Shown one piece after another: positions 8,934 to 30,695 of a stretch of 54,488 nt of DNA. This stretch comes from a virus (Duplodnaviria > Heunggongvirae > Uroviricota > Caudoviricetes), in IMG/VR virus record IMGVR_UViG_3300042992_000089, one strand, 5' to 3'. How positions within the stretch are numbered: position 1 is the first letter of the stretch; every line of letters begins with the position of its first letter. The notes beneath the pieces were generated by a model. The model saw only the letters and a program-made list of their open reading frames with translations, ran no database searches and was not told where the DNA came from. Position numbers and translations under genes: made by a program.

Positions 8934-10094
8934 ATGGCTGATTTTTCATTAACCACCCTCTTTGTAGTACCAGTAGGAAACACATTACCTAGCTCTGGAT
9001 CTACACAGAATTTAACAGCTGGTCAAGTAGGTATTTTCCTAAATGACTATAGTGTTGCTACATCTAGTAACATCGCTGATGCCCCTTATTTCTATGTTGC
9101 TCAAGGTAGAACAAACACGTATTTACAAGGCTCTAAGCGTTCAGACAAAATTGCTGGATGTGTAACTGGTGCTGCTTGTAAGTCAAACGTAACTGAATGG
9201 TACAAGTCTAATGGTTGTGCAACTGCTGTAAATCAAGTTACTGATGTAACTGGTTTCACAGTTAAACCTGGTGAGATTGTAACATTAACTTTACGTGGTT
9301 TCTCTAGCTACTTAGAAACATTGTACTTCAATGGTTTCACTCGTTCTGTAACAGTTAATGCTCCATGTCTTGGATGTGGTGACGATCCTTGTACAGATGT
9401 AGATGTGCCTGCATTGATTGATGATCTTATCTATCATTTAGAGTTAGATGCTCCAGGTAACAATCCTGATAACATCACTTTAAATCAATTTTACCAATTC
9501 CAAAGACTTGGTAACAATGCAAATGCGTTCTTACGTATCACTGGTAAACCATTGACTAAATATGGCCAGCCTTGTGACGTTGCTGCATTCCCTTGGGAGT
9601 ATGACAGATTCTACTTCAGAACTTTCATCTTCTCTGGTCCAGCTACAACTGCTGATTTCATTGTTGATGATCCTTGTAACAGAGTTGCTACTCCAGTGAT
9701 TAGACAACGTTCTAACTATCCTGTTGGTACTTCTGCTGAAGTTCAACAATTAGAGAAGAACTTCTATAGCTACCAAGCTGGTTACTTAAAGCATTTATAC
9801 AGAATGGGTGGTTACAACGAGAACTTTGAGTCTTGGGTAACTGATGGTCAAATCTATGATTTGTACTATATCAAATTCAATGAGTATAATAAATCTGAGT
9901 ACCAATGGGGTGACTATATCTATGAAGATAGCACAGTGATTATTGCTGTTCCTAGCAATCAAACAACTGCTATCGAAGCTATATTAGAAGCTGCTTTAGG
10001 AACTGTTGCTGGAGATACATCTTGTATCACTACAACTAGTACTACAACTACTGTATGGCCTAGTACTTCAACAACAACTACTTTGATCCCTTAA
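8934..10094 (+). CDS. Putative auxiliary capsid protein with Thr-rich C-terminal tail
   Basis: 386 aa, beta-rich, MCP-like codon bias, followed by a strong terminator; synteny with the crAss-like auxiliary capsid gene; ends TTTSTTTTVWPSTSTTTTLIP. Confidence 0.55.
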   Translation: MADFSLTTLFVVPVGNTLPSSGSTQNLTAGQVGIFLNDYSVATSSNIADAPYFYVAQGRTNTYLQGSKRSDKIAGCVTGAACKSNVTEWYKSNGCATAVNQVTDVTGFTVKPGEIVTLTLRGFSSYLETLYFNGFTRSVTVNAPCLGCGDDPCTDVDVPALIDDLIYHLELDAPGNNPDNITLNQFYQFQRLGNNANAFLRITGKPLTKYGQPCDVAAFPWEYDRFYFRTFIFSGPATTADFIVDDPCNRVATPVIRQRSNYPVGTSAEVQQLEKNFYSYQAGYLKHLYRMGGYNENFESWVTDGQIYDLYYIKFNEYNKSEYQWGDYIYEDSTVIIAVPSNQTTAIEAILEAALGTVAGDTSCITTTSTTTTVWPSTSTTTTLIP

Positions 10095-12309: not shown

Positions 12310-14208
12310 ATGTCTTGTTCTTCTTGCTATCCTAATCCTAATCCTTGTTACACTGCATATTATCAACCTGGTCAAAACTGTGGTTGTTGTGGTGGTGTAG
12401 TGGGTGATTGTGGATGTGTTGGTACTGCTGGCACTGCTGGCACTGGTGGCTGGGGCTGCTGGTGTGGTGCTACAGGCTGTGCAGATGCTCCTTATAATAG
12501 TAATAATACTGTCTATGTTGGACCTAATCTTCCTAACTCAGGTGTTAACACTTGTGACACTTTAACCACTGCATTAGAAAAAATTGACTATGTAGTAACA
12601 GGTGGTGGAGGTGGTGGAAAAAATGGAACATCAGGAACTAGTGGAACTCCTAGTACAAGTGGTTCTTCTGGAACCTCTGGTTCTTCTGGCTCTAGTGGTG
12701 TAACTGGTGCTCAAGGTGCTGCTGGTGTAAATGGTACAGCAGGTTCTTCTGGTACATCAGCTTTGTCTGGTTCTTCTGGATCTTCTGGAAGTTCAGGAAC
12801 TGCTGGTAAAAATGGTTCTAGTGGTGTTGATGGTAGTTCTGGAATCAGTGGTAGTAGTGGTACAAGTGGAAATTCAGGATCAAGTGGTAATAGTGGTACA
12901 AGTGGTACTGATGGCTCTAGTGGAACAGCAGGAACAGCAGGAACAGCAGGAGCTGACGGAGCTAATGGAAGCAGTGGCACAAGTGGTCAAAATGCAACCA
13001 GTGGTACAGCAGGACTATCAGGTGATAAATATGCTACAACATCAGTTAGCTCATTTACACTAGGAAGTGGAGGTACAATTACTGTTGGTACAGGACTTTC
13101 TTATACCATAGCACAATCTGTATTAATTTCATTTAATGGATCAAACTATCAAACTTCTCCAGTTACATCTTATAACTCTGGAACAGGTGTTTTAGTTTTA
13201 GGTACACCAAGTGCTACTGTAGGTTCAGGAACTTATAGTTCTTGGACAGTTAACTTAGCAGGAGCTGCAGGTGGTAATGGTTCTAGTGGTACTTCTGGTT
13301 CTTCTGGAACAAATGGTACAGCTGGTACTAGTGGTACGTCTGGTACAGCTGGTACTTCTGGTACTAATGGAACAACTGGCACTTCTGGAACAACAGGTAC
13401 AAGTGGAACAAATGGAACTTCTGGTTCTAGTGGTACTAGTGGTACCAATGGAACAACTGGTACAAATGGATCATCAGGGTCTAGTGGATCTTCAGGTTCA
13501 TCTGGCTCTTCTGGATCATCAGGTAGCTCTGGATCTTCTGGGGTTAGTGGTACTAGTGGATCTTCTGGTGTATCTAATAGTATTTCTGGTGCTACTAATC
13601 AAGTTCTTAAATATAGTAGTGCTACTTCTGCTGTAGGATGTTCTATATATGATGATGATAATTATACATCAATAGGTGGTCCTAATCCAGGATCAAGACT
13701 TAATGTATATCTAGGTAATGGTCAACCAGCAGGAAACTATGTTGCAGATTTTGCAGGCATAGAACCATACGTTACAGTTAGAGCATTAGGTGGTAGTAAT
13801 ACTGCTACATTACAATTACTTCCTACATCAGGTTATACAGCATTTATTGGTAACTATAATGGTGGAGGTGTGATAATTAGAGCAATGAATGCTGATGTGG
13901 TTACAATTGATTCATCTGGTGTTACAGCTCCAGCATTTTTTGAAACTTCTGATATTAGGTATAAGGATGTATTAGAATGGAACCCAGAAATAAATGTGCT
14001 TGGAATAGATGTAATTAAATTTAAGCGTACTGATATTGTAACTAATACAATTAACTATGGTTATTCAGCTCAACAAGTACAAGAAATTATTCCTGATGTT
14101 GTTAATGAGATAGATGAAAAGTTAAGTGTAAACTACATAGCTGTTCATACATTAAAGATAGCAGCATTAGAAAAACGTATTGCAGAACTTGAAGCTAAAT
14201 TAAAATAA
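12310..14208 (+). CDS. Collagen-like tail/head fibre with C-terminal intramolecular chaperone (peptidase S74-like)
   Basis: Two Gly-X-Y blocks (GTS/GSS); C-terminal TSDIRYK...YGYSAQQVQEIIPDVV...VNY...coiled coil is the S74 signature. Confidence 0.85.
   Translation: MSCSSCYPNPNPCYTAYYQPGQNCGCCGGVVGDCGCVGTAGTAGTGGWGCWCGATGCADAPYNSNNTVYVGPNLPNSGVNTCDTLTTALEKIDYVVTGGGGGGKNGTSGTSGTPSTSGSSGTSGSSGSSGVTGAQGAAGVNGTAGSSGTSALSGSSGSSGSSGTAGKNGSSGVDGSSGISGSSGTSGNSGSSGNSGTSGTDGSSGTAGTAGTAGADGANGSSGTSGQNATSGTAGLSGDKYATTSVSSFTLGSGGTITVGTGLSYTIAQSVLISFNGSNYQTSPVTSYNSGTGVLVLGTPSATVGSGTYSSWTVNLAGAAGGNGSSGTSGSSGTNGTAGTSGTSGTAGTSGTNGTTGTSGTTGTSGTNGTSGSSGTSGTNGTTGTNGSSGSSGSSGSSGSSGSSGSSGSSGVSGTSGSSGVSNSISGATNQVLKYSSATSAVGCSIYDDDNYTSIGGPNPGSRLNVYLGNGQPAGNYVADFAGIEPYVTVRALGGSNTATLQLLPTSGYTAFIGNYNGGGVIIRAMNADVVTIDSSGVTAPAFFETSDIRYKDVLEWNPEINVLGIDVIKFKRTDIVTNTINYGYSAQQVQEIIPDVVNEIDEKLSVNYIAVHTLKIAALEKRIAELEAKLK
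12625..13020 (+). repeat. Gly-X-Y (GTS/GSS/GTA) coding repeat block 1
   Basis: 9-nt periodic degenerate repeat, e.g. (GGAACAGCA)3 near 12922-12948. Confidence 0.9.
13260..13572 (+). repeat. Gly-X-Y (GTS/GSS/GTN) coding repeat block 2
   Basis: GSSGTSGSSGTNGTAGTSG...GSSGSSGSSGVSGTSGSSG. Confidence 0.9.
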
Positions 14209-14210
14209 TA

Positions 14211-14891
14211 ATGAGTTGGGCATCCTTAACAAACAATCAGTGTATTTCTTGCAATAATTTACAAGATGGTGTAAACAATAATGTGTTTACATTAAAAAAT
14301 GCTATCCCTGTTAGTAACAAACAAGTCACTAGAAATGAAGCAGAATTTTATGTAAACATTCAAAATATAACAAATAGGTCTGCTAATGAACTTGTAATTA
14401 AAAGTGATGTAATATCTTCTGGTAGTACAACAACTACATCAACTACTCAAGTTCCAACTCCTTGTGGAAATCCAACTTCTTATTCAGGAGGAGTTACATA
14501 TCCAACACCATTCACAATTACAGTTGGTAGTGGTACAGGAAATACTACTCTGACATTTGATGCACAAAATGTTCCTGATAGATTTATAGTTCAATGGAAT
14601 GGTAATTTTGTAATTGATACAGGATATAGAGGTAATTCTAATTATAACATTGGAGGAAGTCTTAGAAGTAACTTTAATTCTTCTTTAAGTGGTAAAGTAG
14701 ATCCTATAACAGGATTAACTTATCCAAACACTACTCAATGGCCAGGAGATGGTTATCCACTAGTAGTAAGTCCTGGTAATGGAACTTCTGTATTTTCTAA
14801 AAATGCTTCCTCACCAACTACAGCAAATGTTTTTGTTTATGCTCCTCTTCCAGGAACTGCGTGGTCATTTACATTAGGTTGCCCAATATAA
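14211..14891 (+). CDS. Putative fibre/decoration protein (shared N-terminal module, Thr linker, beta-sandwich head)
   Basis: N-terminal ~65 aa paralogous to 14924; linker STTTTSTTQ; C-terminal domain with FDAQNVPDRFIV motif. Confidence 0.6.
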   Translation: MSWASLTNNQCISCNNLQDGVNNNVFTLKNAIPVSNKQVTRNEAEFYVNIQNITNRSANELVIKSDVISSGSTTTTSTTQVPTPCGNPTSYSGGVTYPTPFTITVGSGTGNTTLTFDAQNVPDRFIVQWNGNFVIDTGYRGNSNYNIGGSLRSNFNSSLSGKVDPITGLTYPNTTQWPGDGYPLVVSPGNGTSVFSKNASSPTTANVFVYAPLPGTAWSFTLGCPI

Positions 14892-14923
14892 TATTTTAAA
14901 ACCAAATTAATATTAAATAAGTA

Positions 14924-16438
14924 ATGAGTTGGGCATCAATAGCAAATAATCAATGTGTTTCATTAAATAATTTACAGGATGCTGTGAACAATGGAGTATT
15001 TACATTAAAGAATATAATTCCTGTTCCTAACACTAAACAAGTAACTTCAGGTGAAGCAGAATTTTTTGTAAATATAATTCCTACAGGTAAGTCTGTTAAT
15101 GAACTTGTTGTTAAGTCTAATTTAGTTTCACCTCCAACTACAACTACTACATCAAGTACAAGTACAACAAGTACAACCACAACATTTATTTCAGATCCTT
15201 GTAATTGTGTTGAAGTAAATATTACATCTGCTGGTGGTGAAGTAGCAACATTTAATTGTTTTGGAGTAAATGAAAACTATGTTTATGCAACAGCTGGTAC
15301 TAGATATATTTGTGCAGCTGTTATTGGTGGCTTATTACAAGCTAACATCGTATCAGGTACAGGAACGTTAACACCTATTGGTAATTGTAAAACTGGACCT
15401 TGTGGATCAACAACAACAACAACAACAACAACTATATTTAATCCAACTAACAACCTTAATTTTATTCAGACTATTGTAAGTAGAGATGATGTTACTAGCT
15501 CAAATGATGGAAAATATGTAGCTACAATATGCGTTACAAATAATAAATTATATATTTCTAATGACTATGGACTTACTTATACAACAGTTACTGTTGCTGG
15601 GACAAATACACTCTATAGAGTTGCTGTAAGTGGAACAGGTGAGTATATGTATTGTCTTTCACAAGCTCAAGGACAACCAGGTGTTATTTCAAGATCTACA
15701 GATTATGGTGTTAATTGGAATACTACAGGTACTGCAACAGGAGCATATTCTTCAATTACTACAAATAGAACAGGACAATATGTAATTGTTGGAGCAATAA
15801 ATTTAGGTGAAGCAGAATCAGGGTTGGGTCAAATTTGGAGATCTTCAGATTATGGAGTATCTTTTGTAAGAGTAGATTTTTCTTTTGGTGGTCTTTATCC
15901 TCAAGCACCCTATGCTGTTACAGTAGATAGTTCAGGTAATCGTCAATATGCTGCTACCATTAATCTTAGTATGGCAGCATTTGATGGAACTGTAGGAAGA
16001 ACAACAACTGCTTTAGGTAATTTTACACCCAAAGCTCAAGATGGTAATCAAACATATTATGGAGTGAGTACCTCTGCTGATGGATCAAAAGTGGTTGTTG
16101 CTAATCAAGGTGGATTTTACGGATATAGTCCTGGAAATGTTCAGTTGAAAAGAAGTATAGATTATGGTGACACGTATGCAAATTTTGGTGGAGTTTCTAC
16201 TCAATGGCTTGGTGTAACTATAGATGGAAGTGGTACAAATATAATAGCTGTTCCAGGTACTTCAGGAGCAAGCACTTTATATAAATCAGTTTCATTTGGT
16301 ACACTTTCTTCAGTAGCAAGTTCTAAACTTTGGACTAGTGTATCAATTTCTTATAATGCAACTGTAGCAATTGCTGCAGAAACAACTGGACTTTGGAGAT
16401 CTACAAATGGTGGATCTACTTGGACAAAATTATCTTAA
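14924..16438 (+). CDS. Putative receptor-binding/decoration protein with BNR (Asp-box) beta-propeller
   Basis: Asp-box repeats SNDYGLTY, STDYGVNW, SSDYGVSF, SIDYGDTY, STNGGSTW; two Thr-rich linkers. Confidence 0.75.
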   Translation: MSWASIANNQCVSLNNLQDAVNNGVFTLKNIIPVPNTKQVTSGEAEFFVNIIPTGKSVNELVVKSNLVSPPTTTTTSSTSTTSTTTTFISDPCNCVEVNITSAGGEVATFNCFGVNENYVYATAGTRYICAAVIGGLLQANIVSGTGTLTPIGNCKTGPCGSTTTTTTTTIFNPTNNLNFIQTIVSRDDVTSSNDGKYVATICVTNNKLYISNDYGLTYTTVTVAGTNTLYRVAVSGTGEYMYCLSQAQGQPGVISRSTDYGVNWNTTGTATGAYSSITTNRTGQYVIVGAINLGEAESGLGQIWRSSDYGVSFVRVDFSFGGLYPQAPYAVTVDSSGNRQYAATINLSMAAFDGTVGRTTTALGNFTPKAQDGNQTYYGVSTSADGSKVVVANQGGFYGYSPGNVQLKRSIDYGDTYANFGGVSTQWLGVTIDGSGTNIIAVPGTSGASTLYKSVSFGTLSSVASSKLWTSVSISYNATVAIAAETTGLWRSTNGGSTWTKLS

Positions 16439-16460
16439 TTAAACCAAACAAATCAATAAT

Positions 16461-17090
16461 ATGACAGTCTTAGTAACATTAACATTAGCAGGGACAGACG
16501 TAGGTCCCTTTAACCTTTATTCAAATGTAGATGGATATACCACAGCAATAGCAAGTGGTGTATCTAGAGCTGCATTAGTAGCAGGATACAATCTTTTAAA
16601 TGTGCCTGATAATGCTTCTGTTATCAGAGTACAATCTACAGGCACTTGTACAAATTATCTTGATATACTTTTAAGTGGTGCAACAACCACTACAACTAGT
16701 AGCACTTCTACTTCTACAACAACCTCTACAACCACAGCATTTGTTGAATGTATAACTGGTGATAGAAATGCACTCGCTACATGTTCTGGAGGTGAATCTG
16801 CTCCATTCACAGTGACTGCAGGAAATACAGCTCTTATCACTCCTGGTGGATATTACTACTCTGGAACTGGTACAAGAACATATGCATGTTACATTATGGA
16901 TGCTGCAAATACCACAGTTTTATATACGTTCACTTATACTCAGACAAGCATGAGTCCAGGAACTTGGGCATCAACATTACCTTCTAACATCTTATCTGCA
17001 GGTAGCTATCGCTTAAGAACAGATACAGTGAACTGTTTCACTAGCTCTGGTACATTTAGTTTAGTTGCAACTTGCAACACACCTGATTAA
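16461..17090 (+). CDS. Putative decoration protein ('GPF' N-domain, Thr linker, variable head)
   Basis: N-terminal ~70 aa paralogous to 26217 and 26662; linker TTTTTSSTSTSTTTSTTT. Confidence 0.6.
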   Translation: MTVLVTLTLAGTDVGPFNLYSNVDGYTTAIASGVSRAALVAGYNLLNVPDNASVIRVQSTGTCTNYLDILLSGATTTTTSSTSTSTTTSTTTAFVECITGDRNALATCSGGESAPFTVTAGNTALITPGGYYYSGTGTRTYACYIMDAANTTVLYTFTYTQTSMSPGTWASTLPSNILSAGSYRLRTDTVNCFTSSGTFSLVATCNTPD

Positions 17091-17265: not shown

Positions 17266-18516
17266 ATGCCTGAAAATCAATCCTTGCTGCAACAGCTAGA
17301 AGAGATTCTACACTGGAAAAAAAGTAAAAAGTTCTATGCTGATAAGCTTGGAATTACAGAGTTTGAGGTGGATGAGCTATTAAAAGAATTAAGAAATCAA
17401 GAGAAGAGTGAAGAAGATGCTGAGATAGGGAACTATATTGCTGATCTAGAAAACAGGGTTATTAAGTTTACAGAAGATCTAGCTAAGGGTACAGGAGAGG
17501 TTGTAGCCAACTTTAGCGAAGAGGTTAAGAGTTTAGACGAACTCATTGAGAAATGTAAGATAGATACAGAGAAGTGGGAGATAACCAAATATGTTCAAAA
17601 CTTCTGGGGAAATGGAAACAATCCTCATTGGCAAGTCAAAGCATGGTTAGGGAAGAAGTCTACAGAACAAGTTTTTCAAGATGTGTTTGTAGACTTTTTA
17701 GCTTCATATAAGCCTGTGTCTCAAGAAGTTATGAGTCCTAAGGTTGACTTTAACAAACCAAATGGTATGTTAGTTATCAACAAACAAGACTCTCACTTAA
17801 ACAAATGGGACATAGATGGTAATAATAATGTAGCAGATAGACTAGCTAACATTATGTACAAGGTGGAACTGATAGCTAATCAAGCTCAGTTATCCAACAA
17901 CTTGCAGAACATAACTTACATAATAGGATCTGATGAGTTTAACAGTGAGTATACAAATGCCACTACAAAAGGAACTCCTCAACAGAACACGCATACATAT
18001 CATACATCTTTTGAATACATCTGTGGACATGAGGTGTTAATGATTACAATGTTATTACAATATGCTCAGAATGTAAATGTAATCTATGTGGCAGGTAATC
18101 ATGATGAGTTTGTAGGTTGGCATTTAGTTAACTGGTTACAAACCTACTTCAGAAATACAGAGAGATTAGCATTTGATTTATCTCCTAAGTATAGAAAGTA
18201 TGTAAGCTATGGTGATTCAGCATTGATGTTTAACCATGGAGATGCTATCAAACCAGCTAAGCTTGCAGCTTTATTCCCAATAGAGTTTAGAGAACATTGG
18301 TCTAGTCATAGCAAGTTTTACATTTTTACAGGAGACAAACACCATGAGGTGAGTCATGATTTCAATGGTATAAAGTTTTATCAAATTCCAGCATTTTCAA
18401 ATGCTAAAAGTCTTTGGGACGACAAGATGGGTCACACAATGTCCAAGGCAGAAGTAACAGGATTTTTAATAGATGACTGTGATGGGATGACAAATATATT
18501 CAAACAGTATTTATAA
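17266..18516 (+). CDS. HTH-fused calcineurin-like metallophosphoesterase
   Basis: N-terminal HTH-like KKFYADKLGITEFEVDELLK; metal motifs QDSHLNK (DxH), GSDEFN, VAGNHD, FNHGD, TGDKHH. Confidence 0.8.
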   Translation: MPENQSLLQQLEEILHWKKSKKFYADKLGITEFEVDELLKELRNQEKSEEDAEIGNYIADLENRVIKFTEDLAKGTGEVVANFSEEVKSLDELIEKCKIDTEKWEITKYVQNFWGNGNNPHWQVKAWLGKKSTEQVFQDVFVDFLASYKPVSQEVMSPKVDFNKPNGMLVINKQDSHLNKWDIDGNNNVADRLANIMYKVELIANQAQLSNNLQNITYIIGSDEFNSEYTNATTKGTPQQNTHTYHTSFEYICGHEVLMITMLLQYAQNVNVIYVAGNHDEFVGWHLVNWLQTYFRNTERLAFDLSPKYRKYVSYGDSALMFNHGDAIKPAKLAALFPIEFREHWSSHSKFYIFTGDKHHEVSHDFNGIKFYQIPAFSNAKSLWDDKMGHTMSKAEVTGFLIDDCDGMTNIFKQYL

Positions 18517-19735: not shown

Positions 19736-20707
19736 ATGGCATACTATTACAGATACAATTTTGTCTCACCTGAACCAATTTATTCAGTTGTTAAGGAAGA
19801 GTTAAAATCCTACTTTGACACAGGAGCAGTGGATGATTTGCTTTTCCCTACTTACTTAGACAAATGTCTACAGAAGTTAGGTAGGTCAAGTTATGTCATT
19901 GCTGAACAGACGCTAGATATTTCTGGTTATGAGGCTAGACTTCCTGATAACTTCTTTGCTGTTAGAGAGGCTTGGATGTGTACAGAGATACCATCTAACT
20001 ACCCATATCAAACAGCTAACTCGTTCTATTCTCAAGCTGCTTCTCAAACAACAATACAAGTCTCTCCTATTATTAGTGGTGGAGTTCCTTGTGTAGAACC
20101 TAACTGTACAACAGGATGTCCTACGTGTATGCCTGATATCATCCAAGCAGTATATAAAACCAATCAACAGATTGCTAGATCAATAAAAAGAGAATACTTA
20201 TTAAAACCAGGTAATATATCTTGTCAAAGTAAGTGTGATGTAAGTTATACAGATGCTTGGGAATTCTATACACCTGCTCCTCCTATACATGAGTTCACTC
20301 CAGGATCAGCAGGATATGATAGCTTTGACATTAGAGATAATAAGTTTGTCACTAACTTTGGTTGTGGTATAGTTCATATGATATTCTATGCTACAGACTA
20401 TGATGCTATTGGTAATCAGTTAATTCCTGATAACTATCGTATTAGAGAGTTTGTAGAAGCGTTTATTAAATACAAGGTGTTTGAGACATTGGCTAATCAA
20501 ATCAATGATGAAACTTTTAATCAAATACAACAGAAGCTAGCATATTACAAACAGCTACATGATGAAGCATTCATTATGGCTTACACTGAAATTAAGAAGC
20601 AAGACGCATGGACTAAACAAAGAAGAGTAAGAAATGACTTACAACGCTTTGGACAATATGAATTACCAAATAGAAGCTCAAGATATGGCAGAGGATGGAA
20701 TAGATAA
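19736..20707 (+). CDS. Tail tubular/ring protein (P22 gp4-like position)
   Basis: 323 aa directly upstream of the stabilisation protein; GYEARLP and LIPDNYRIREFVEAFIKYK segments; Cys-rich insert. Confidence 0.6.
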   Translation: MAYYYRYNFVSPEPIYSVVKEELKSYFDTGAVDDLLFPTYLDKCLQKLGRSSYVIAEQTLDISGYEARLPDNFFAVREAWMCTEIPSNYPYQTANSFYSQAASQTTIQVSPIISGGVPCVEPNCTTGCPTCMPDIIQAVYKTNQQIARSIKREYLLKPGNISCQSKCDVSYTDAWEFYTPAPPIHEFTPGSAGYDSFDIRDNKFVTNFGCGIVHMIFYATDYDAIGNQLIPDNYRIREFVEAFIKYKVFETLANQINDETFNQIQQKLAYYKQLHDEAFIMAYTEIKKQDAWTKQRRVRNDLQRFGQYELPNRSSRYGRGWNR

Positions 20708-23700
20708 TCAAGGAACATCTAACGTAAGACAAGAATTTAATCTTGGCAGAGTTGGATTAGACATGGACTCTTCTGTAAATCAAATACAGAAGGGTAAGCT
20801 TTCTTATGCTCTAAACGCAGCATTAGAAAACTTTGACGCTAATTCTGTAAGCTATCAGAATGAGCCAAGTAATGAAGCTTGCTTAGAGTTTCCTGAAGGC
20901 TTTCAGCTTATTGGAACTCATTTCATACAAGAGAAAAACAAACACATATTCTTCTTAGCGAATCCTCAAACAGGAGGAAGTGAGATAGGATATATGGATA
21001 ACAATGATTGTGTATATCGCACACTTTGTACTCCTATTCCTGATACAGACTTAACAGTTTGTGCTAACTCAGAATGTTTAAACTTTGATATAAACTATCC
21101 AATACACAAGGCTGTACATAAGATTACAAACTGTACCACTGAGGTTTATTGGACTGATGGATTAAATCCAAGAAGATATATTAACATTGAGCAAGTTCCA
21201 TATGTTTTTTCATATGAAGGAGGTAATACTTGTGATCCAACTATTCTAGTAGTAGATGGACAAGGAGTTCTTGATTGTAATAAGTTAGATGTACAACCTA
21301 ACTTTCAAATTCCTAATATAGAAGTTGCTGAAATTGTTGTAGGAGGAGATTTGAGAGCTGGTACTTATCAATTTGCTATTCAATATGGTAATGCTTCAGG
21401 AGATGCTTATACATCCTACTTCTCTATAACTAATCCTACATCTATTGCTAATACAGAAATAACAACTCCTGATTTTCAATATTCTGTAGGTGAATCTATT
21501 GTATTAAATATTACTAACTTAGATGTTACAGGATACTTCCAATACTTTAACTTAGCTGTTATAAAGACCATTAATAATGGTACCACTGTAGAATTAGTGG
21601 GAACATATAACATTGAAGAAAAGTCTACAAGTATAACTTATACAGGACAGAACACAACTCAGATTCCTTTGAGTCTTGCAGATGTTCTTGAAAAGTTTCC
21701 TTATTATGAGATTGCTCAAGATGTAACAAACGTACAAGATGTTATTGTTTGGGACAACTTAACTTCTATTGATAGAATCAACTATCAAAGCGTTGCTAAT
21801 CAAGTACAACTTCAATGGGAGACATATAAACTGCCAGCTGGTAACACCTATGCTGATGGTTTTTATACTTCCAACTTAAGAGGATATTTAAGAGATGAGG
21901 TTTATGCATTTGAAATTGTATTCTTATTAACCAATGGTAAGCAAACAGATGGTTTTCATATTCCTGGTAGATCACCAATTTCTAATGATTTAACTCCTAT
22001 TTATGAAACTGGTCCTAATGCAACTCCTGACTTCATAGGTACTGCTACTAATGTTGAACCTGTTACACTTTATAAATATAGTCCTAATTGGAAAATATAT
22101 AATACAGCCAGTGTATCTACAACGTATCCTGTTCCTACAGACAATACTAGGAAGATAGGAGAGGCATACCCTTATCAATCTGGAGACTTTGCATATTGGG
22201 AGTCTACTGAGGAGTATCCATGTAACGTAGATGTATGGGGAGACTTAGCTGGTAAACCAATTAGACACCATAAATTTCCTGATGTTCTTGTAAGTCCTTA
22301 CTTTGAGAGTCCAAGCATTGTATATAATGGAGGTCAGATAGAACCTGTAATGCAAGTTGCCAATGCTATCTATCCAATAGGTGTGAAGATAGATGTACAA
22401 CAAGTGGCATTTGCTATTCAAAGCTCTAGTTTAACAAATGAAGAGAAGGCATCTATTGCTGGATTTAAAATAGTAAGAGGTAATAGAAGTACAAACAAAT
22501 CTATTATTGCTAAAGGTATTCTTAGAAATGTAGGTAAATACACTAGAGAAGATCCTGCTGATCCTAATGCTACATACTACTACTATCCTAACTATCCATA
22601 CAATGACTTAAGTGAAGATCCATTCTTACTTGAGAGAAACAATGCTTACAACTCTCAATGTGATACGTTCTCTGTATCAGTGACAACTCCTGGTATCTTA
22701 CAATACACAAACTGTTTTACAGGAGAAGTAGATACACAAGCTTTTACTAGCAGTACCACTGAAATATGTTCTATCACACTTCCTGTTGTAAATAGTGGTT
22801 CTGCAACATTTACAAATACTACAACTACTACTTATACAATTACAAATAATTCAGCTGTTAGTTCTGTTACATTTAATTATACAGATCCAGTTACAGGAGC
22901 ATTACAAAGTATAACAGTAGGTAGTGTTGTAGGTGGTAACAACGTTAAAACATTTAACTCTACCACTTTCCCTGTAAGAACATCAGGACTAAGTAATTAT
23001 AAAATAGTAGCTAGCAACACAAGTGAAAACTTAAATTGTTATCCTAATAAATTAGATGGATTTAATAATCCTGAGTCTGCTTACAGACAAGTATTTAATT
23101 CTCCAGAGACTTCTTTTGGACAACCTACACTAGGTAATGTTCTTAAGTTAGAGAGTGTATTATTTGGTGGAGGAAGAGCTCATTTTGTTGAAGTGCAGAA
23201 ACATGCTATGTATAAGCTTATCACTGAACAAACACAAGTTGATGCTTTAACCTCTAGTAAGAGAATAGCTGATCTTGGGGGATTTAGTCCTACAGCATTC
23301 TTTACAGCATATCAAACTTACTTACAGATTTATATCAATGGTATTAGTAGACAAAACTTTGCATATTCATTTAACTCTATATCTAGTTATGATTATAGTG
23401 CAGATATTTCTAATAATCAAGGAATTAAACAAAGACAACTTGATCTAGCTCAATACGTATTTCCAGGTGTACAGAACGTAGGTGATAATTATGATCTTAA
23501 TAACTGGAACAGAGAGTCTTCAGTTTATGTTAAAACTATTGATGTTAGAAATGGAATACCTGTATCACCTTTGCCATATCCTAATGACACCCCTTCTCTT
23601 GTTGTAGCAGGTGTAAGTCAAATTAGTGACACTTCAAGATTTACAATTTCAGAAGCAGAAAACTGTGCTAGTCCTGAAGCTCAGAGAGATATCAAAGTAG

Positions 23701-26195
23701 TATCTTACTATGGTTCTATAAAGGCTATTAATAATGCTCAATGGGGACAGATATATTCATATCAAACTATTGACACAGGATTCCAAAGAATATTCAGTGC
23801 AATATCTGCTAATGATCCTGAAGTAATATTTGGTGGTGATACATATATTGGTAAGTTTGGATTTAAAACAAAACTTCCATTCTTTATTGATAATAGAGTG
23901 AATGCTCCTGATGATTCTGATATATATTATGATGAGATAGGTAATGTAGCTTACCCACAATATTGGTATTCAGCAAGATCTATCTTGTCTGATTTTACTG
24001 TAGGCTCTACTGTAATGAAGAATATAATCTCTACCAAAGCACATTATCTTGATTGTCCTAATGATGATATTGCTGACAGTGGTACAACAACTTCTACAAC
24101 TACACCTGCTCCAGGAACAGTAATAGCTGGTTCTTTGAATTATGTGTATGATGGTAAGATGTACTTGTTTGCTTATGGTATTCCTTACTATTATGTAGAG
24201 AGTTCTATTAATGTAGACTTACGTCAGGCATTCAATAACTTAGAAGGTGACTTCTATCCACATGTAAGTTCAGGTATCCCTGATACTTGGTTCCAAGAAA
24301 GTAGAGTTCCTATTGCTCTTGATAATACATATTATTACAATACAACCTTCTCTAAGCAGAATGTAGAGAACTTCTTCTCTCACTTGCCTGCAGATTGGAT
24401 ACAGCAATTATGTTATAAAAACTTTCCATTCAGAGCAATATACTCTGATAGACAAGAAAGTTATTCTGACAATAGAATAAATAGCTGGTTGATATATCGT
24501 CCAGTGAGCTTCTTTGATTTCCCTCAAAACTATGGTAATCTTATATCTTTAGATGGTATTCAGAACAGAGCTACACTAGCTAGATTTGAGAACAAGACAT
24601 TGTTATATGGTAACATGTTAACATTGAATACAAGTAATCCTCAAGCAGCTTATTTAGGTAATCCTTCATTATTCAGCAGTGTTGAACCACCTCCTATAGA
24701 TTACGCTGAAACAGATCTTGGATATGTTGGTTGTCAAAATAAGATGTTGCTTAAGATACCTCAAGGGCAGATAACTATTGATGCTAAGAGATGTCAAGTA
24801 TTTTTAATTCAAGGAACACAAGCAACTGATATTTCAGGATTTGGTTCTGGTCTTAATAGATTCTTTACAAATCATTTAGCATTTGAAATACTAAGATACT
24901 TCCCAACAGTTAACACAGATAATCATTTCAAGAATATTGGTATTCATGGTGTGTATGATAGTGTATTTGAAAGAGTAATAATTACTAAGTTAGACTATGT
25001 TCCACAACCAGGTAAAGAGGTATTTTATGATGAGGTGGTTAAACAGTTTTATGTTGACCAACCAGTAGCTGGTGATCTTGTAGTTAAGAAATATATCGAG
25101 GTGACAGATCTTGAATACTTCTGTAACAAATCATGGACTGTTTCATTTAACTTCAATACAAAGAGTTGGGTGAGTTTTCATACATATCTTCCTAACTTCT
25201 ATATAGGAGAAAACAGCTTCTTCTATTCTGGATTAAATGAAGGTTGTGATGTCACAGCAGTGGCAGTTGTACCAATACCTTCTCCAACCACAACTACAAC
25301 AACAACAAGAATTATATACTGTAACCTAACTGGTACAGCTGTAGTGGTAGGATATCCTTGTCTTTTAGGAGGAACAGCTTCACAACAAACCACTACCACT
25401 ACAACAACATCTACATCTACTTCTACTAGTACCACTACTACTACCACAACTGCTGTGCCTTTTGACTGTATATTAATTCCAGGATCTTTTACAACAGAAC
25501 CTGATTGTAGATTAACAGCAGGAGAATTTATACGTGTATCTGTTACTACAACAAGTACAACAACTCCTACTCCTACAACTAGCACTACCACTACACCACA
25601 ACCATCTCTTTATAGATATAGTTCAGCAGGTCCTGATGATGCTTGTGGTACTGCTTTAACAATGACAAATGTAATATTGACTGATCCACCATTCTGTTCT
25701 GCAACTGCAATTCAATGTGATGAGTTTGTACTATCACCAGCTGGTGTACCAGTATGGGTTCGCACTGGTAATAGCTATAGAGCTGCAACAATCAATGATC
25801 CTAATACATCTGGAATTGCTACATTCGATGTAGGAACATGTATTGTATGTACAACTACAACTAGTACTTCTTCTACTACTACTACCACTACAACTGCAGC
25901 ACCTGTTGCAAGAACTGTAACTAACCTTGGTGCAAGTGCTTCTGATATATTAGGAGAGATTTATATAGATTCCTCAGTTACTCTTAGTGGTAATGTAAAT
26001 GTAGATACTATAATAGAAGTAGTTGTGTCCACTAGTACATATGGTGATATCACTGTATATGTTACAATACTCAATGGTAACAATGCAGGAGTTGGTTCAA
26101 CTTCTGTTGGAATGGGAAGTCTTCCATCAGTATCAGGTCAATGTATTGCATCTTCTGATAATGTATATGTAACTTTCATTGGGTATGAATGTTAA
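20685..26195 (+). CDS. Tail stabilisation/muzzle protein (P22 gp10-like), main part with Thr-rich C-terminal extension
   Basis: GLDMDSS...GKLSYALNAALE N-terminus, GYLRDEVYAFEIV, FGGDTYI, KSWVSFHTYLP. Start chosen at MAEDG (20685) rather than 20634 to minimise overlap with the upstream gene. Confidence 0.75.
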   Translation: MAEDGIDNQGTSNVRQEFNLGRVGLDMDSSVNQIQKGKLSYALNAALENFDANSVSYQNEPSNEACLEFPEGFQLIGTHFIQEKNKHIFFLANPQTGGSEIGYMDNNDCVYRTLCTPIPDTDLTVCANSECLNFDINYPIHKAVHKITNCTTEVYWTDGLNPRRYINIEQVPYVFSYEGGNTCDPTILVVDGQGVLDCNKLDVQPNFQIPNIEVAEIVVGGDLRAGTYQFAIQYGNASGDAYTSYFSITNPTSIANTEITTPDFQYSVGESIVLNITNLDVTGYFQYFNLAVIKTINNGTTVELVGTYNIEEKSTSITYTGQNTTQIPLSLADVLEKFPYYEIAQDVTNVQDVIVWDNLTSIDRINYQSVANQVQLQWETYKLPAGNTYADGFYTSNLRGYLRDEVYAFEIVFLLTNGKQTDGFHIPGRSPISNDLTPIYETGPNATPDFIGTATNVEPVTLYKYSPNWKIYNTASVSTTYPVPTDNTRKIGEAYPYQSGDFAYWESTEEYPCNVDVWGDLAGKPIRHHKFPDVLVSPYFESPSIVYNGGQIEPVMQVANAIYPIGVKIDVQQVAFAIQSSSLTNEEKASIAGFKIVRGNRSTNKSIIAKGILRNVGKYTREDPADPNATYYYYPNYPYNDLSEDPFLLERNNAYNSQCDTFSVSVTTPGILQYTNCFTGEVDTQAFTSSTTEICSITLPVVNSGSATFTNTTTTTYTITNNSAVSSVTFNYTDPVTGALQSITVGSVVGGNNVKTFNSTTFPVRTSGLSNYKIVASNTSENLNCYPNKLDGFNNPESAYRQVFNSPETSFGQPTLGNVLKLESVLFGGGRAHFVEVQKHAMYKLITEQTQVDALTSSKRIADLGGFSPTAFFTAYQTYLQIYINGISRQNFAYSFNSISSYDYSADISNNQGIKQRQLDLAQYVFPGVQNVGDNYDLNNWNRESSVYVKTIDVRNGIPVSPLPYPNDTPSLVVAGVSQISDTSRFTISEAENCASPEAQRDIKVVSYYGSIKAINNAQWGQIYSYQTIDTGFQRIFSAISANDPEVIFGGDTYIGKFGFKTKLPFFIDNRVNAPDDSDIYYDEIGNVAYPQYWYSARSILSDFTVGSTVMKNIISTKAHYLDCPNDDIADSGTTTSTTTPAPGTVIAGSLNYVYDGKMYLFAYGIPYYYVESSINVDLRQAFNNLEGDFYPHVSSGIPDTWFQESRVPIALDNTYYYNTTFSKQNVENFFSHLPADWIQQLCYKNFPFRAIYSDRQESYSDNRINSWLIYRPVSFFDFPQNYGNLISLDGIQNRATLARFENKTLLYGNMLTLNTSNPQAAYLGNPSLFSSVEPPPIDYAETDLGYVGCQNKMLLKIPQGQITIDAKRCQVFLIQGTQATDISGFGSGLNRFFTNHLAFEILRYFPTVNTDNHFKNIGIHGVYDSVFERVIITKLDYVPQPGKEVFYDEVVKQFYVDQPVAGDLVVKKYIEVTDLEYFCNKSWTVSFNFNTKSWVSFHTYLPNFYIGENSFFYSGLNEGCDVTAVAVVPIPSPTTTTTTTRIIYCNLTGTAVVVGYPCLLGGTASQQTTTTTTTSTSTSTSTTTTTTTAVPFDCILIPGSFTTEPDCRLTAGEFIRVSVTTTSTTTPTPTTSTTTTPQPSLYRYSSAGPDDACGTALTMTNVILTDPPFCSATAIQCDEFVLSPAGVPVWVRTGNSYRAATINDPNTSGIATFDVGTCIVCTTTTSTSSTTTTTTTAAPVARTVTNLGASASDILGEIYIDSSVTLSGNVNVDTIIEVVVSTSTYGDITVYVTILNGNNAGVGSTSVGMGSLPSVSGQCIASSDNVYVTFIGYEC

Positions 26196-26661: not shown

Positions 26662-27528
26662 ATGGCTAAAACAGTAATAATAAGATTAACTTGCTCAGGT
26701 GGCAGAACAGGACCCTTTGATATCTCTGATAACTTAGGGACAGTCTTGGGCATTGACATTACTAAACAAGACCTTATTGATGGATATACTGTTAGTGTTG
26801 CTGACTCTGTTACTACAATAATTATAAGATCTAAAGGTAAGTGTTCTACTAGCATTAATGTTACAATTGGTACAGCTACAAAAGAACAGCTTGCTGCTTT
26901 AGACTACACTGTATGTAACACAGGATCTATATGGAAGCATTTAGATGATACAATACATTATAACAAATACTATGGTAATGTAGAACCATACATAATTGAA
27001 TATCCATTTGCTTATCAAACCTATGATGAGATACTTCAGAATGTTAAAGATTATAGTAAGGTGTATAACTATATACCATCTGTAGATGGAGTGGTTAATG
27101 AAACTGCTAAGATAGAGGTTGATAATCAATGGTTTAACAAAGCTGTTCTATATAATGGACAACAGTCTACAGGTATATTAGAACTTGTACCAAAGCCAAT
27201 CAACAACCTAAAACAATACTTAGCTTACCCAATATATAATGACTTTAGCAAGACTATCACTTATACTAAGTCAGATAACTTCTATCAATATAATACATTC
27301 TGGGGATTAGTTAAGAATAAATCATTACCTTTGTTTAGAACAAGTTGTGAGTCTTTATCAGTAGATAAGGTTGTAAATCAAGTGAATATGGATTATGGAA
27401 AACGTTCATTTAAGAAAGAACCATTGAGAGCCAAAGACTTAAAGGTAAGACACATCCTTGACAATAGCTCTGAAGCACATATAGTTTCTCAATTCATTAT
27501 TGCACCTGCTCAAATCTCTTATAAGTAA
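26662..27528 (+). CDS. 'GPF' domain fused to probable C-terminal segment of the stabilisation/muzzle protein
   Basis: Residues ~1-70 are the GPF module; then SIWKH...YNKYYG...PYIIEY...FNKAVLYNGQQSTG...LRAK resembles the usual end of crAss-like stabilisation proteins (recalled, not searched). Confidence 0.55.
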   Translation: MAKTVIIRLTCSGGRTGPFDISDNLGTVLGIDITKQDLIDGYTVSVADSVTTIIIRSKGKCSTSINVTIGTATKEQLAALDYTVCNTGSIWKHLDDTIHYNKYYGNVEPYIIEYPFAYQTYDEILQNVKDYSKVYNYIPSVDGVVNETAKIEVDNQWFNKAVLYNGQQSTGILELVPKPINNLKQYLAYPIYNDFSKTITYTKSDNFYQYNTFWGLVKNKSLPLFRTSCESLSVDKVVNQVNMDYGKRSFKKEPLRAKDLKVRHILDNSSEAHIVSQFIIAPAQISYK

Positions 27529-30500
27529 TGGCTAACTGGTTAGACAAATATGAACAAGGAGGCTTAGTCTTAAAGAAAAAGACCAAGGATAACTATGGCA
27601 AGAAAGCTAATCCTAATGATGTCCAAGTATCTGTAGGTCCTGACTTTGTAGGACTTGGATATAACATTAAGGGTAGGGACTATTCTCCTGCATGGGGTGG
27701 GCGATTTCAGAATGGTGGATTCTTACAACCTAATAGTTCTAAATTGCCAGAAGGATATGTAATACCATATAACACTCCTAGCACTGAATTAGCTATGTCT
27801 ATAGGTGGAGAAAAAGGAGAACCAGCTTATTTAATTCCTTCATTTAAAGGTGGTAAGAAATTAAAAGATCCTATTGCTGAATATAAGAAGACAGGTGAAC
27901 ATCTTGGTGGTCCATTTAAAACATGGCAAGAAGCTGAGAAGTTTGGTGAGATGAGACATGAATATGTAGAGAAAGGACAATCACTTCCTTCTCCATTGAA
28001 GTGGTGGGATGATATGCAAATGGGGGGATCTATGCCAGGTTCTGTAGGCTTCACGTACGCACGTGTAGCTGGCTCAGCTCCTGCTAATGGTAAGTATACT
28101 AAGAAGACAAAAGCTAGTGCTCAGAATGGTCAAGAGATGAAATTCTACCAAGAAGGACTAGACTTCAAACCTAAGAGTATAAGTCAAGATGGAAAAACTA
28201 TTCCTAATGAGAAAGAGGAAATAAAACCAATTACAACTTCTCAAAAAAACATAGGACAAGCTGCAGCATGGAAAGTAATAGAAGCTATTAAAGCTAACAC
28301 TCCATATCAATTATCAGAAAGTGCTGTAAAGTCTGGAATAGATCCATCATTAACATGTATAGGTGGTGTATGTAATGTCTATAAAGATTTAGGTGTTGAC
28401 TTCTCTGGTGTAGGAAATGAAAAACAAGGTGTAAGAGAATCAAGAACAAAAGGTAAAGTAGTAGAATATAATCCAACATTTGATAAAAACTATAAAGCTG
28501 CTGGATTTGAAAAAGTAAAAGGAAGACCTATTGAATTTAATGAGTTAACTGATATAATACAAAAAGGAAACTTAAATCCAGGAGATTTTATACAATACTA
28601 TAATAAAAAAGGTATTCCAGATCATACTAATATTGTATTAGGTTCAAACCCTGATGGCAGTGTTGAGGTTTATAATTCATATAAACATGGACAGGTAACA
28701 AGAGGAGAAAGTAAAGAACCTTATGTATATACATTAAATCCTGAAGCACAAGACTATAAAGGTAAAAAAATTAATGTATTTAGAGTAGGTGATCAAAAGG
28801 CAACAGAAATAAGAGATGCAAGTGCAAATGATCCAAGTGGTATAACAAACACTTGGTTTAATTACAATATGGAGAAGGCGATTCAAAGAAGAATGAAAAT
28901 ACTAGAAAAGGATTACCAAGAACTTGCAAAACAAAGTGGTGAACCTGCTAAAAAACTAACTCCATCACAATTAAGAAAAGCTGCAATAGAAGAAGAAAGA
29001 CGTATTTATGAATCAGATCCTATGTTTAAAAGAAACCTAGAGATAATAAATACAGTTGACTTTTCTGAATCTCCACAAGAAGCAATGTATAGAACATTGA
29101 ATAAAAAGAAAAATGGTGGATGGTTAGATAACTACAGTGAACCAATAAGAGATGACAGAGGACAGTGGGCTCATCCAGGTAAGATAACAGAGATAGGATC
29201 TAACAATATTACAATGCAAGGGGTAGACTATCCTGTTCTTGGCATATCTGATACAGGTGATACACAGATGATGTATCCTGATCAAGATTATAAGTTTGAT
29301 GGTGAAAAGGTTACAGAGTATCCAATGGCTCAAGATGGTGAGAACATTACCAAAAAACTGAAGAAAGAAGCTGAGGAGAAATTAGAAAGGATGAAGAAAC
29401 CTAAGGCTACTCTATCTCAATATACACCTAAGAAAGGGGAACAAGCTAAGTTTGATAAACAGAAGTTACAAAGAATAGCTGAAGACAATGCTCCATTAAA
29501 TAGAATGGCTGCTAGTAAGGGAGCTAAGAATATGCAAGATGCTATAGAAGCAGCATTGATAATGGAAGGTGGATTGGCAGCAAGTAAGCTTGTTGGTAAA
29601 GGTGCCAAAGCAGCTGCTAAATATGCTACAGAACAAACAGCCTTAAAGAATGTTTATAAGTTAAATCCATATGCATTTAAACCTACAGAGGGAATGATGT
29701 ATAGAGGTATTGGTAAAGAAGGAATGGAAGATGCATTACAAAGTGGTCTGTTTAGAGCTAAACAAAATGTAACTCCTACTAGTATAGGTAACTTTAATAC
29801 TACTAGACAATTTAGTAAAGCTTACTATACTCCTAGATTTGATATAGCAGATCAGTATGGACAAGGGTATATTGCTGAGGTACCAAGAGGAGCTTCTGAC
29901 TGGGGTAAGAGATATGGTAAAAAAGAATGGAGTCAAATAGCTCAAAGAGATATACCTATAACTGAAGGTAAAGTTTTACAGAAAGATTGGTTAAAAAGAT
30001 ATAAAGAAGTTCCTAAACCAACTGCTTCAGAACAAGTTGTAAGAGGTCCAATTCCTGCTCCTTACAAAGGAACAACTTTACCTTATGATAACATTGGATA
30101 TAAGGAACCAGCAACAGGAGAACTAGCTCCATACATGACACCAGAGTTTGAAGCAATTCCATATAGTGAATTACCTAAAACTGTATATCATGGTGGTCCT
30201 AGTGTTATTTCAGACGCAGGTGCTATTAGAATAACTAGAGAAGGATTGCCTATTCAAAGTGCAACTTCTCCAACTTCAAGAGGATTCTATGCAACTCCTA
30301 ATACTTGGATGCATATGGAAGGTTCTCCAAATCCTCTTAGAGATGTAGAAGGATTTTATCCAAAACTTGCTAGTGAGAATGCTGAAAACTATGCAATGGG
30401 AAGAGGGGATGCATACATACATGGAGGTGAGTTTGTTGAAAATCCTAGAATAGTTGACTGGAAAACATTTAGTCAAATGGAACCAGTTAAGAATCTTAAT

Positions 30501-30695
30501 CCTGACTTTAGAAGACTAAGTCCTGAGGCTGCTAAAATAGCAGAAGATCTTGGTATATATGGTCTTAGAGATAATAGTGAATATAACATTCTTAATCCAC
30601 AAAAGGTTTTTAAATCATTTAAACCTGCATATAAAAATCTGGGTAAAGGTTGGGAAAAATATAACAAAGGTGGCTGGTTAAACAAATATAAATAA
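27528..30695 (+). CDS. Polyvalent cargo/ejection protein (NlpC/P60-CHAP-like domain and two ADP-ribosyltransferase-like domains)
   Basis: C277 (LTCIGGV) and H366 (PDHTNIV); YRG...YYT...ADQY; YHG...GFYAT...AENYA; repeated WL[DN][KN]Y and xxGG peptides. Confidence 0.6.
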   Translation: MANWLDKYEQGGLVLKKKTKDNYGKKANPNDVQVSVGPDFVGLGYNIKGRDYSPAWGGRFQNGGFLQPNSSKLPEGYVIPYNTPSTELAMSIGGEKGEPAYLIPSFKGGKKLKDPIAEYKKTGEHLGGPFKTWQEAEKFGEMRHEYVEKGQSLPSPLKWWDDMQMGGSMPGSVGFTYARVAGSAPANGKYTKKTKASAQNGQEMKFYQEGLDFKPKSISQDGKTIPNEKEEIKPITTSQKNIGQAAAWKVIEAIKANTPYQLSESAVKSGIDPSLTCIGGVCNVYKDLGVDFSGVGNEKQGVRESRTKGKVVEYNPTFDKNYKAAGFEKVKGRPIEFNELTDIIQKGNLNPGDFIQYYNKKGIPDHTNIVLGSNPDGSVEVYNSYKHGQVTRGESKEPYVYTLNPEAQDYKGKKINVFRVGDQKATEIRDASANDPSGITNTWFNYNMEKAIQRRMKILEKDYQELAKQSGEPAKKLTPSQLRKAAIEEERRIYESDPMFKRNLEIINTVDFSESPQEAMYRTLNKKKNGGWLDNYSEPIRDDRGQWAHPGKITEIGSNNITMQGVDYPVLGISDTGDTQMMYPDQDYKFDGEKVTEYPMAQDGENITKKLKKEAEEKLERMKKPKATLSQYTPKKGEQAKFDKQKLQRIAEDNAPLNRMAASKGAKNMQDAIEAALIMEGGLAASKLVGKGAKAAAKYATEQTALKNVYKLNPYAFKPTEGMMYRGIGKEGMEDALQSGLFRAKQNVTPTSIGNFNTTRQFSKAYYTPRFDIADQYGQGYIAEVPRGASDWGKRYGKKEWSQIAQRDIPITEGKVLQKDWLKRYKEVPKPTASEQVVRGPIPAPYKGTTLPYDNIGYKEPATGELAPYMTPEFEAIPYSELPKTVYHGGPSVISDAGAIRITREGLPIQSATSPTSRGFYATPNTWMHMEGSPNPLRDVEGFYPKLASENAENYAMGRGDAYIHGGEFVENPRIVDWKTFSQMEPVKNLNPDFRRLSPEAAKIAEDLGIYGLRDNSEYNILNPQKVFKSFKPAYKNLGKGWEKYNKGGWLNKYK

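Follow-up and report, generated by a model that had tools for sequence, protein, structure and literature searches.

The IMG/VR virus record IMGVR_UViG_3300042992_000089 (54,488 nucleotides, referred to in full as the window) is the structural half of the genome of an uncultured crAss-like phage. In it a 1055-residue protein, a putative cargo protein that is probably injected (27528-30695, + strand), carries an internal copy of a peptide from the N-terminal arm of the same phage's major capsid protein (MCP; 5467-7020, + strand). The copy is the core of a longer conserved segment of the cargo protein, which we refer to as the cassette. As judged by comparison with related sequences, the likeness is real and both copies are held by purifying selection on the peptide; its interpretation is partly supported, and a docking role shared by the two peptides is plausible. 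The reading we favor, with a probability of about 0.4, is that the cassette is a short linear motif that imitates the strand of the MCP N-arm, docks on the partner of that arm and serves as an accessory anchor, not as a packaging address.

The cargo peptide MPGSVGFTYARVAG lies at 28032-28073 (+ strand; residues 169-182) and the MCP N-arm peptide IPGLTGFTYARVAS at 5482-5523 (+ strand; residues 6-19), coordinates and sequences that the first-pass annotation of this DNA had given correctly. The two proteins have PG-x-x-GFTYARVA in common (MCP residues 7-18, cargo residues 170-181), bearing out the GFTYARVA identity with a preceding PG claimed in that annotation, and GFTYARVA is the sole 8-mer outside of low-complexity sequence that is common to two proteins of the window. 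When the first 24 MCP residues were aligned locally with the downstream open reading frames (ORFs; 15,249 residues), the match scored 54, a value reached by none of 100 shuffled MCP arms, the best scores of which had a mean of 30.6 and a standard deviation of 2.9. A rough Gumbel estimate gives p ~2e-5 for this pair of arm and cargo peptide, and by our own estimate p is ~0.01 when every segment that a reader might pick is allowed for. A further similarity (A-x-G-K-hydrophobic-T, with a one-residue offset) may exist ~18 residues downstream, although its inclusion gained no alignment score.

That two independently constrained short segments came to resemble one another purely by chance is in our view quite unlikely. 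Such a coincidence would be compatible with a corrected p of only ~0.01, with a similarity that arose once in evolution and not once per genome, and with the lack of co-variation between arm and cassette described below. It would not readily account for the 10-12 matched positions of the common consensus, hydrophobic-P-G-x-x-G-F-x-Y-A-R-(V/T), which extend to the hydrophobic residue before PG, for the like pattern of conservation in both copies, or for the appearance of the cassette in exactly the clade whose arm reads GFTYARV.

At the DNA level, GFTYARVA is encoded by ggc ttc acg tac gca cgt gta gct in the cargo gene and by ggt ttt acc tat gct aga gta gct in the MCP gene, with six of the eight codons differing. 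Across relatives, the invariant residues of both copies are encoded by two to six synonymous codons, and the preferred codons differ between the copies (TTT ACT TAT GCT for MCP, TTC ACA TAC GCA for cargo), which argues for selection on the peptide and against gene conversion, and agrees with the first-pass view of protein-level conservation without recent duplication. When a degenerate DNA pattern for PGxxGFTYAR was searched for in IMG/VR, all of the matches listed were either MCP N-termini or the cassette. The strong mosaicism of the cargo genes and the location of the cassette at module borders might be expected if the likeness were a DNA-level feature, whether a linker for module-shuffling recombination, a recent duplication or a product of gene conversion. 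The codon evidence excludes all three of these, and we give a DNA-level explanation almost no credence.

Although the peptide at 28032-28073 was correctly delimited in the first-pass annotation, it is only the core of the full cassette QMGGSMPGSVGFTYARVAGSAPANGKYTKKTKASAQNG, which spans ~28017-28130 (+ strand; residues 164-201). The likeness to an MCP N-terminal peptide is likewise real, but the cargo copy itself is internal (residue 170 of 1055) and not N-terminal. The cassette comprises ~38 residues (MGGsxPGaVGFTYARt...NGkYaKKTkaSAQNG), approximately three times the length of the shared core. Nearly all relatives read aWGGqFaMGGs(L/M/I)PG(A/S)VGFTYAR(T/V)xxxAPsNG(K/P)Y(A/T)KKTkaSAQNG, and the core is kept in 60 or more distinct relatives as PG[AST][VTP]G[FM][TSM]YAR[TV]. 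Residues G, P, G, G, Y, R, P, G, T, S, and G are invariant in the cassette, within an alignment that has a mean column identity of 34% and whose flanks diverge and are mosaic; of the cassettes found by profile instead of by pattern, about three-quarters retain the canonical core. There is one cassette per protein, at a position ranging from residue 46 to residue 500 (55 relatives), and it lies almost always within the first segment, with an N-terminal WLDKY tag before it and the next GGWLxKY tag after it (these tags are described below). The AlphaFold2 (AF2) model of cargo residues 140-230 has no secondary structure and a mean predicted local distance difference test (pLDDT) score of 56, that is, the stretch is predicted to be disordered. 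The cassette thus shows the two features by which short linear motifs are recognized, location in a (predicted) disordered region and conservation amid diverging flanks, and its near-invariance within mosaic proteins, together with the predicted disorder, is typical of a docking motif for a conserved partner.

The MCP is of the crassvirus type. It matches PF23898 over residues 25-509 (93.3 bits against a cut-off of 27, E 1.5e-26) and phrog_11589 (E 1.4e-32), and its AF2 model (mean pLDDT 81.5) has an HK97 fold with an E-loop insertion, the nearest structure being that of gp32 of the crAss-like phage crAss001, chain 7QOF_B (Z 21.0, root-mean-square deviation 4.2 over 416 residues; Foldseek E 2e-25). 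By sequence, phmmer found no matches in PDB to either the MCP or the cargo protein, and the sole match to the MCP in INPHARED, Leptolyngbya phage Lbo-JY46 (26% identity), has a different N-terminus. Within the clade the MCP N-terminus MAIQTIPGLTGFTYARVASMDKRAVGKL is nearly invariant. In MCPs at 81-93% identity, T, M, L, N, Q, H, V, or S may stand between F and Y, the most variable position in the MCP copy, and A may be G or S; in MCPs down to ~40% identity the pattern PGxxG-x-x-x-x-R is kept and is followed by SSMDKRAIGKLTDxNHL. From this conservation, the arm pattern is an old structural element. Residues 11-17 (GFTYARV) are modeled by AF2 as a β-strand with a pLDDT of ~74, and the most conserved residues in both copies are F, Y, and R at positions i, i+2, and i+4, which fits a contact made via one face of a strand. 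Taken together, the predicted disorder of the cassette, the strand face and the conservation within mosaic proteins fit a motif engaging a conserved partner through strand addition.

A number of observations weigh against the cassette being a mimic of the arm. A mimic would be expected to track its model, and the first-pass annotation had proposed co-variation across related phages as a check of its reading; in 40 or more genomes that carry both peptides, the cores of arm and cassette do not co-vary. Pairs with identical cores (GFTYAR in both, 30 genomes) occur beside several types of mismatched pair. With an MCP that reads GFTYAR, the cargo reads GMMYAR in four genomes, GFSY(A/G)R in four, GFMYAR with one additional residue in G058 and GNMYAR in G059, while the MCP cores GFQYAR, GFAYAR, and GFKYAR are paired with the cargo cores GFTYAR (G034), AGATGMMYAR (G048), and a degenerate GMMYAG (G046), respectively. 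The supposed contact residue F is replaced by M in at least five genomes and by N in one. In G061, in which the MCP reads GFTYAR, the cargo core is deleted (LPSAFVRTGD) while the basic half downstream of it (NGKYAKKT..SAQNG) is retained, leading us to suspect that the center of cassette conservation may lie outside of the MCP-like part.

The distribution of the cassette belongs with these observations. Among records picked solely for an MCP with GFTYAR, the cassette was identified in 17 of 22, and in seven of the eight of these that are at least 90% complete. It is absent from all six complete genomes among the records chosen for a variant arm, from one complete genome with the standard arm, and from five more distant relatives, the MCPs of which are 68-98% identical to a representative at 63% identity. 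Several cassette-free lineages still carry WLDKY-tagged cargo, in some cases sharing a neighboring module with the window protein. No arm-like peptide was found in crAss001 gp45, gp46, gp47, gp44, gp20, or gp31, and no convincing one in three more distant relatives (G075, G076, and G078), a match PQLQGLTPEEIATMDGK of G078 to its own arm being borderline, unrelated-looking and reached by 1 of 100 shuffles. (Large downstream ORFs of G078 [ORF at 16581, residues 889-906] and G076 [residues 211-228] contain PQL(Q/K)GLTPEEIA(T/A)MDGK, the likeness of which to their own MCP arm PGLTGLTYGRVSSMDGR was reached by 1 of 100 shuffles for G078 and 21 of 100 for G076 and is probably due to chance.)

In an MCP tree computed without the arm columns, the cassette-bearing genomes are a crown group, in which the arm reads GFTYAR, the basal lineages lack the cassette, and its presence is explained by three state changes. 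On this comparative evidence the MCP arm is the older of the two; the cassette was inserted later, as an optional element, in the clade whose arm reads GFTYARV. The first-pass annotation had proposed the peptide as an address for the packaging of ejection proteins. Because many relatives keep both the arm and WLDKY-tagged cargo without any cargo copy of the peptide, it is not a general packaging address of this group, and by the same comparison the cassette is not required by cargo of the tagged type.

These findings could also mean that the cassette has a function of its own that is unrelated to the MCP arm, the likeness being a relic of a copied fragment or a convergence, with no shared partner; we consider this the main rival of the favored reading and only somewhat less probable. 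The cassette might then dock in the portal channel, the tail barrel or the muzzle, or its basic half might, once ejected, associate with DNA, membrane or cell wall. A separate function would suit the extent of the cassette beyond the shared core and the survival of its most persistent part (YAR...NGxYxKKT..SAQNG) after the core deletion in G061, the tolerance of the core to changes of F to M or N and of PG to AG, the lack of co-variation and the optional presence of the cassette within the clade, and it has a parallel in crAss001, in which short segments of the cargo protein gp45 bind ring proteins and the muzzle inside the tail (PMC10172136). It is more difficult to reconcile with the canonical core being kept in about three-quarters of the profile-found cassettes, with the F-x-Y-x-R face being conserved alike in both copies, and with the improbability of so close a match arising by chance; moreover, hhalign of the cassette profile against crAss001 gp45 indicated no relation (probability 0.9%).

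We further considered that both peptides might be recognition sites of one protease or modifying enzyme, of the phage or the host, as in the Prp motif. There is a precedent for a short motif common to a capsid protein and other proteins that are cut by one protease (PMC5744158). The cargo, with its many x-G-G junctions, resembles a polyprotein in which the cassette is located between modules, and it contains a weak Cys/His hydrolase-like region (Amidase_6, E 0.002). However, no prohead protease of the S78 or ClpP family was found in five complete relatives (a Peptidase_S77 search was uninformative, as its control matched nothing anywhere), and in chain 7QOF_B of the homologous crAss001 MCP 503 of 504 residues are modeled, which indicates, as indirect evidence for the MCP of the window, that the N-terminus of that protein is still present in the mature capsid. 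Cleavage of the MCP would take off fewer than 20 residues, which are predicted to form a structured strand, the arm has no GG junction, and basal lineages conserve the arm without a second substrate. Considering both sides, we regard a shared processing or modification site as very unlikely.

Under the reading we favor, that the cassette imitates the arm, the cargo protein would carry a ~38-residue motif in a disordered linker, the core of which imitates the β-strand of the MCP N-terminal arm. The cassette would have arisen late, in the clade with the GFTYARV arm, and been kept thereafter by purifying selection. By strand addition it would most likely bind to the conserved surface on which the MCP arm docks while the procapsid assembles or at the portal vertex, and candidates for this surface are the C-terminal hook of the scaffolding protein, a neighboring MCP, or the capsid-facing loops of the portal. 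Such docking would fix a small number of cargo molecules to the shell. We infer both that arm and cassette share a partner and what that partner might be, the candidates in the window, apart from the MCP, being a P22-like portal protein (913-3495, + strand; phrog_6547 E 6.6e-102; PF16510) and a scaffolding-like protein (4147-5430, + strand) encoded directly upstream of the MCP gene. In the latter an acidic, disordered N-terminus is followed by a Q-rich helical stretch and then by a conserved C-terminus (SNELFGEVARQ...SWF), in which the SNELFGEVARQ helix and an invariant Trp in the terminal SWF-x tail are kept across 40 relatives; crAss001 gp31 matches this protein in both position and composition. 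A complex prediction with MCP residues 25-517, residues 150-427 of the scaffolding-like protein and cargo residues 140-230 as partner scored 0.00, gave no verdict and was not used. Of the known systems, in phage P22 the scaffold hook binds the coat N-arm and the ejection proteins co-assemble with the scaffold (PMC12005531), and in crAss001 the 12 portal loops contact 10 MCP subunits, with two of these capsid-adaptable loops unresolved in either conformation, and the cargo protein gp45 docks via short segments on the portal and tail barrel (PMC10172136).

It is also conceivable, if unlikely, that the cassette is a decoy of the N-arm that would fill vacant arm-receptor sites at the unique vertex and thereby anchor a few cargo molecules for ejection. 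Vacant arm sites would be expected at this vertex because the 12-fold portal meets 10 capsid subunits and the penton is missing.

The 1055-residue protein is labeled as cargo because of its gene position, composition and mosaicism, and its assignment as such in the first-pass annotation is plausible, as it is encoded straight after the muzzle and before giant RNA polymerase (RNAP)-like ORFs. Its position matches that of gp45 in the crAss001 gene order (gp44, gp45, gp46, gp47). The protein has no Pfam or PHROG family, and it gave no Pfam match to crAss_CARG1, the family of crAss001 gp45, even at E up to 10; by sequence it is not a member of the gp45 family. A homology of the cassette to a tail-barrel segment of gp45 (residues 214-245), which was suggested by eye, was rejected when the pairwise alignment proved no better than shuffles. 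The Amidase_6 (NlpC/P60-like) match at 28520-28665 (residues 331-378) is below threshold and suggests a cell-wall hydrolase module, and the C-terminal third of the protein (residues 690-1055) has a YRG motif as in ADP-ribosyltransferases, with no family match. Relatives of the cargo protein in IMG/VR are 33-89% identical and highly mosaic, and such proteins are assembled from cassettes joined at x-(N/M/Y)-G-G junctions. For instance, the window protein (residues 45-165) has a ~100-residue module (YLIPSFKGG...EHLGGPFKTWQEAEKFG...) inserted between AWGGRFQNGG and MQMGG, while in other genomes AWGGQFAMGG passes directly into the conserved cassette without this module.

The tags of the window protein are an N-terminal WLDKY (27537-27551, + strand), an internal GGWLDNY (29121-29135, + strand) and a C-terminal GGWLNKY (30675-30689, + strand). 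Nearly all motif-bearing relatives both begin and end with a WLDKY-type tag, and the WLxKY tags, being present in every lineage, would be the better candidate for a general packaging address. In crAss001 (MH675552) gp45, residues 427-431 lie in the sequence FGGWLNTQGG, exactly where the portal-bound domain resolved by cryo-electron microscopy (residues 425-552) starts, and QANWLDTL occurs near the C-terminus (residues 801-804). By analogy with the GGWL(N/D) motif at the start of that domain, the GGWLxKY tags of the clade may be portal-docking elements.

The gene order of the window begins with the end of the terminase gene (14-913), which is followed by the portal protein, an SPFH/Band 7 domain protein (3498-4028, + strand; PF01145 E 3e-25) with an N-terminal hydrophobic helix, the scaffolding-like protein, the MCP and, after it, ring proteins 2 and 1. 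The muzzle protein (20634-26195, + strand; PF25731 crAss_MUZ E 7.6e-30) anchors the cargo gene in the crassvirus gene order; it is followed by two small ORFs, the cargo gene, and ORFs of 958, 864, 4145, and 1744 residues, large ORFs that are without annotation and are described as RNAP-like giants. The location of a member of the SPFH/Band 7 membrane-scaffold family between the portal and scaffolding-like genes is unusual, and none of the crAss001 genes listed is an obvious counterpart of it. One of the small ORFs (26662-27528, + strand; 288 residues) matches phrog_15100 only at its C-terminal end (positions 1588-1781 of 1783), and the muzzle ORF matches the N-terminus of the same family, from which it appears that a muzzle-type protein is split here, or fused elsewhere; the cargo gene thus follows the muzzle and its split C-terminal piece. 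A DNA-repair-exonuclease-like protein (17266-18516, + strand; phrog_704 E 5e-45) has its gene midway through the block of tail genes, immediately upstream of that for ring protein 2. An ORF of 632 residues (12310-14208, + strand) consists mostly of G-S/T triplet repeats, as in a collagen-like fiber, and long poly-Thr/Ser linkers are common to the muzzle (20634-26195) and several tail or fiber ORFs (8934-10094, 14211-17090).

How defined numbers of large ejection proteins are loaded into the heads of crassviruses and other podoviruses is, to our knowledge, largely unknown. We know of only one well-defined address peptide, the capsid targeting sequence (CTS) of phage T4, of no P22 ejection protein that carries a copy of the coat N-arm, and of no phage for which capsid targeting by structural mimicry of the coat protein has been described. 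A literature search for the literal motifs GFTYAR, WLDKY, and GGWLDKY found no relevant paper. If true, the use of a cargo motif that imitates the coat's own arm would solve the loading problem in a new and simple manner, with one peptide and three candidate partners as a testable handle, and the cassette, if sufficient, could be used as a tag to load foreign proteins into crass-like capsids. Equally important are the negative results: a cassette that is optional, acquired late and not co-evolving with the arm should not be taken for the packaging signal of this phage group, and the ubiquitous GGWLxKY tags take priority as candidates for that signal. The new elements here are the lack of co-variation between arm and cassette, the derived and optional character of the cassette, the variants that have lost its core, the predicted strand of the MCP arm, and the retained N-terminus of the crAss001 MCP.

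By analogy, the closest functional counterpart of the cassette is the T4 CTS, a short conserved peptide on the otherwise diverse injected internal proteins IPI-III and Alt that is thought to direct them into the assembling head (PMC3012670). The T4 CTS is at the extreme N-terminus, whereas the cassette is internal; it targets the scaffolding core and is unlike the capsid protein in sequence, whereas the cassette copies the MCP arm; and it is removed by the prohead protease, of which, in the S78 and ClpP families, no gene was found in the five complete relatives. Unlike the CTS, the cassette is optional within its clade, and the occurrence of tagged cargo without it is a comparative hint against its necessity.

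Phage P22, likewise a podovirus, resembles the phage of the window in its portal and in encoding a scaffolding-like protein separately, immediately upstream of the MCP. Its ejection proteins gp7, gp16, and gp20 are loaded into the procapsid in a scaffold-dependent manner, and the MCP N-arm is the docking site of the scaffold (PMC12005531). That contact is electrostatic (Asp14, Glu15, and Glu18), whereas the arm in the window presents a hydrophobic strand face, as predicted. For the recurrence of a capsid N-terminal motif in other proteins, the closest precedent is the Prp motif, which is common to the capsid and scaffolding proteins of Staphylococcus phage 80alpha and the host ribosomal protein L27 (PMC5744158). 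In both cases a short motif at the N-terminus of the capsid protein recurs in non-homologous proteins; in the Prp substrates, however, it is always N-terminal and is cut by a host protease, whereas in the window the second copy is internal, and the N-terminus is retained in the related MCP of crAss001. Finally, crAss001 gp45 has no detectable sequence homology to the cargo protein and no peptide like the crAss001 MCP arm, but it occupies the same position after the muzzle gene, is long and partly disordered, with short ordered segments that dock on the portal, tail barrel and muzzle (PMC10172136; PDB 7QOG/7QOI series), and carries GGWL(N/D) motifs as the tagged cargo proteins do.

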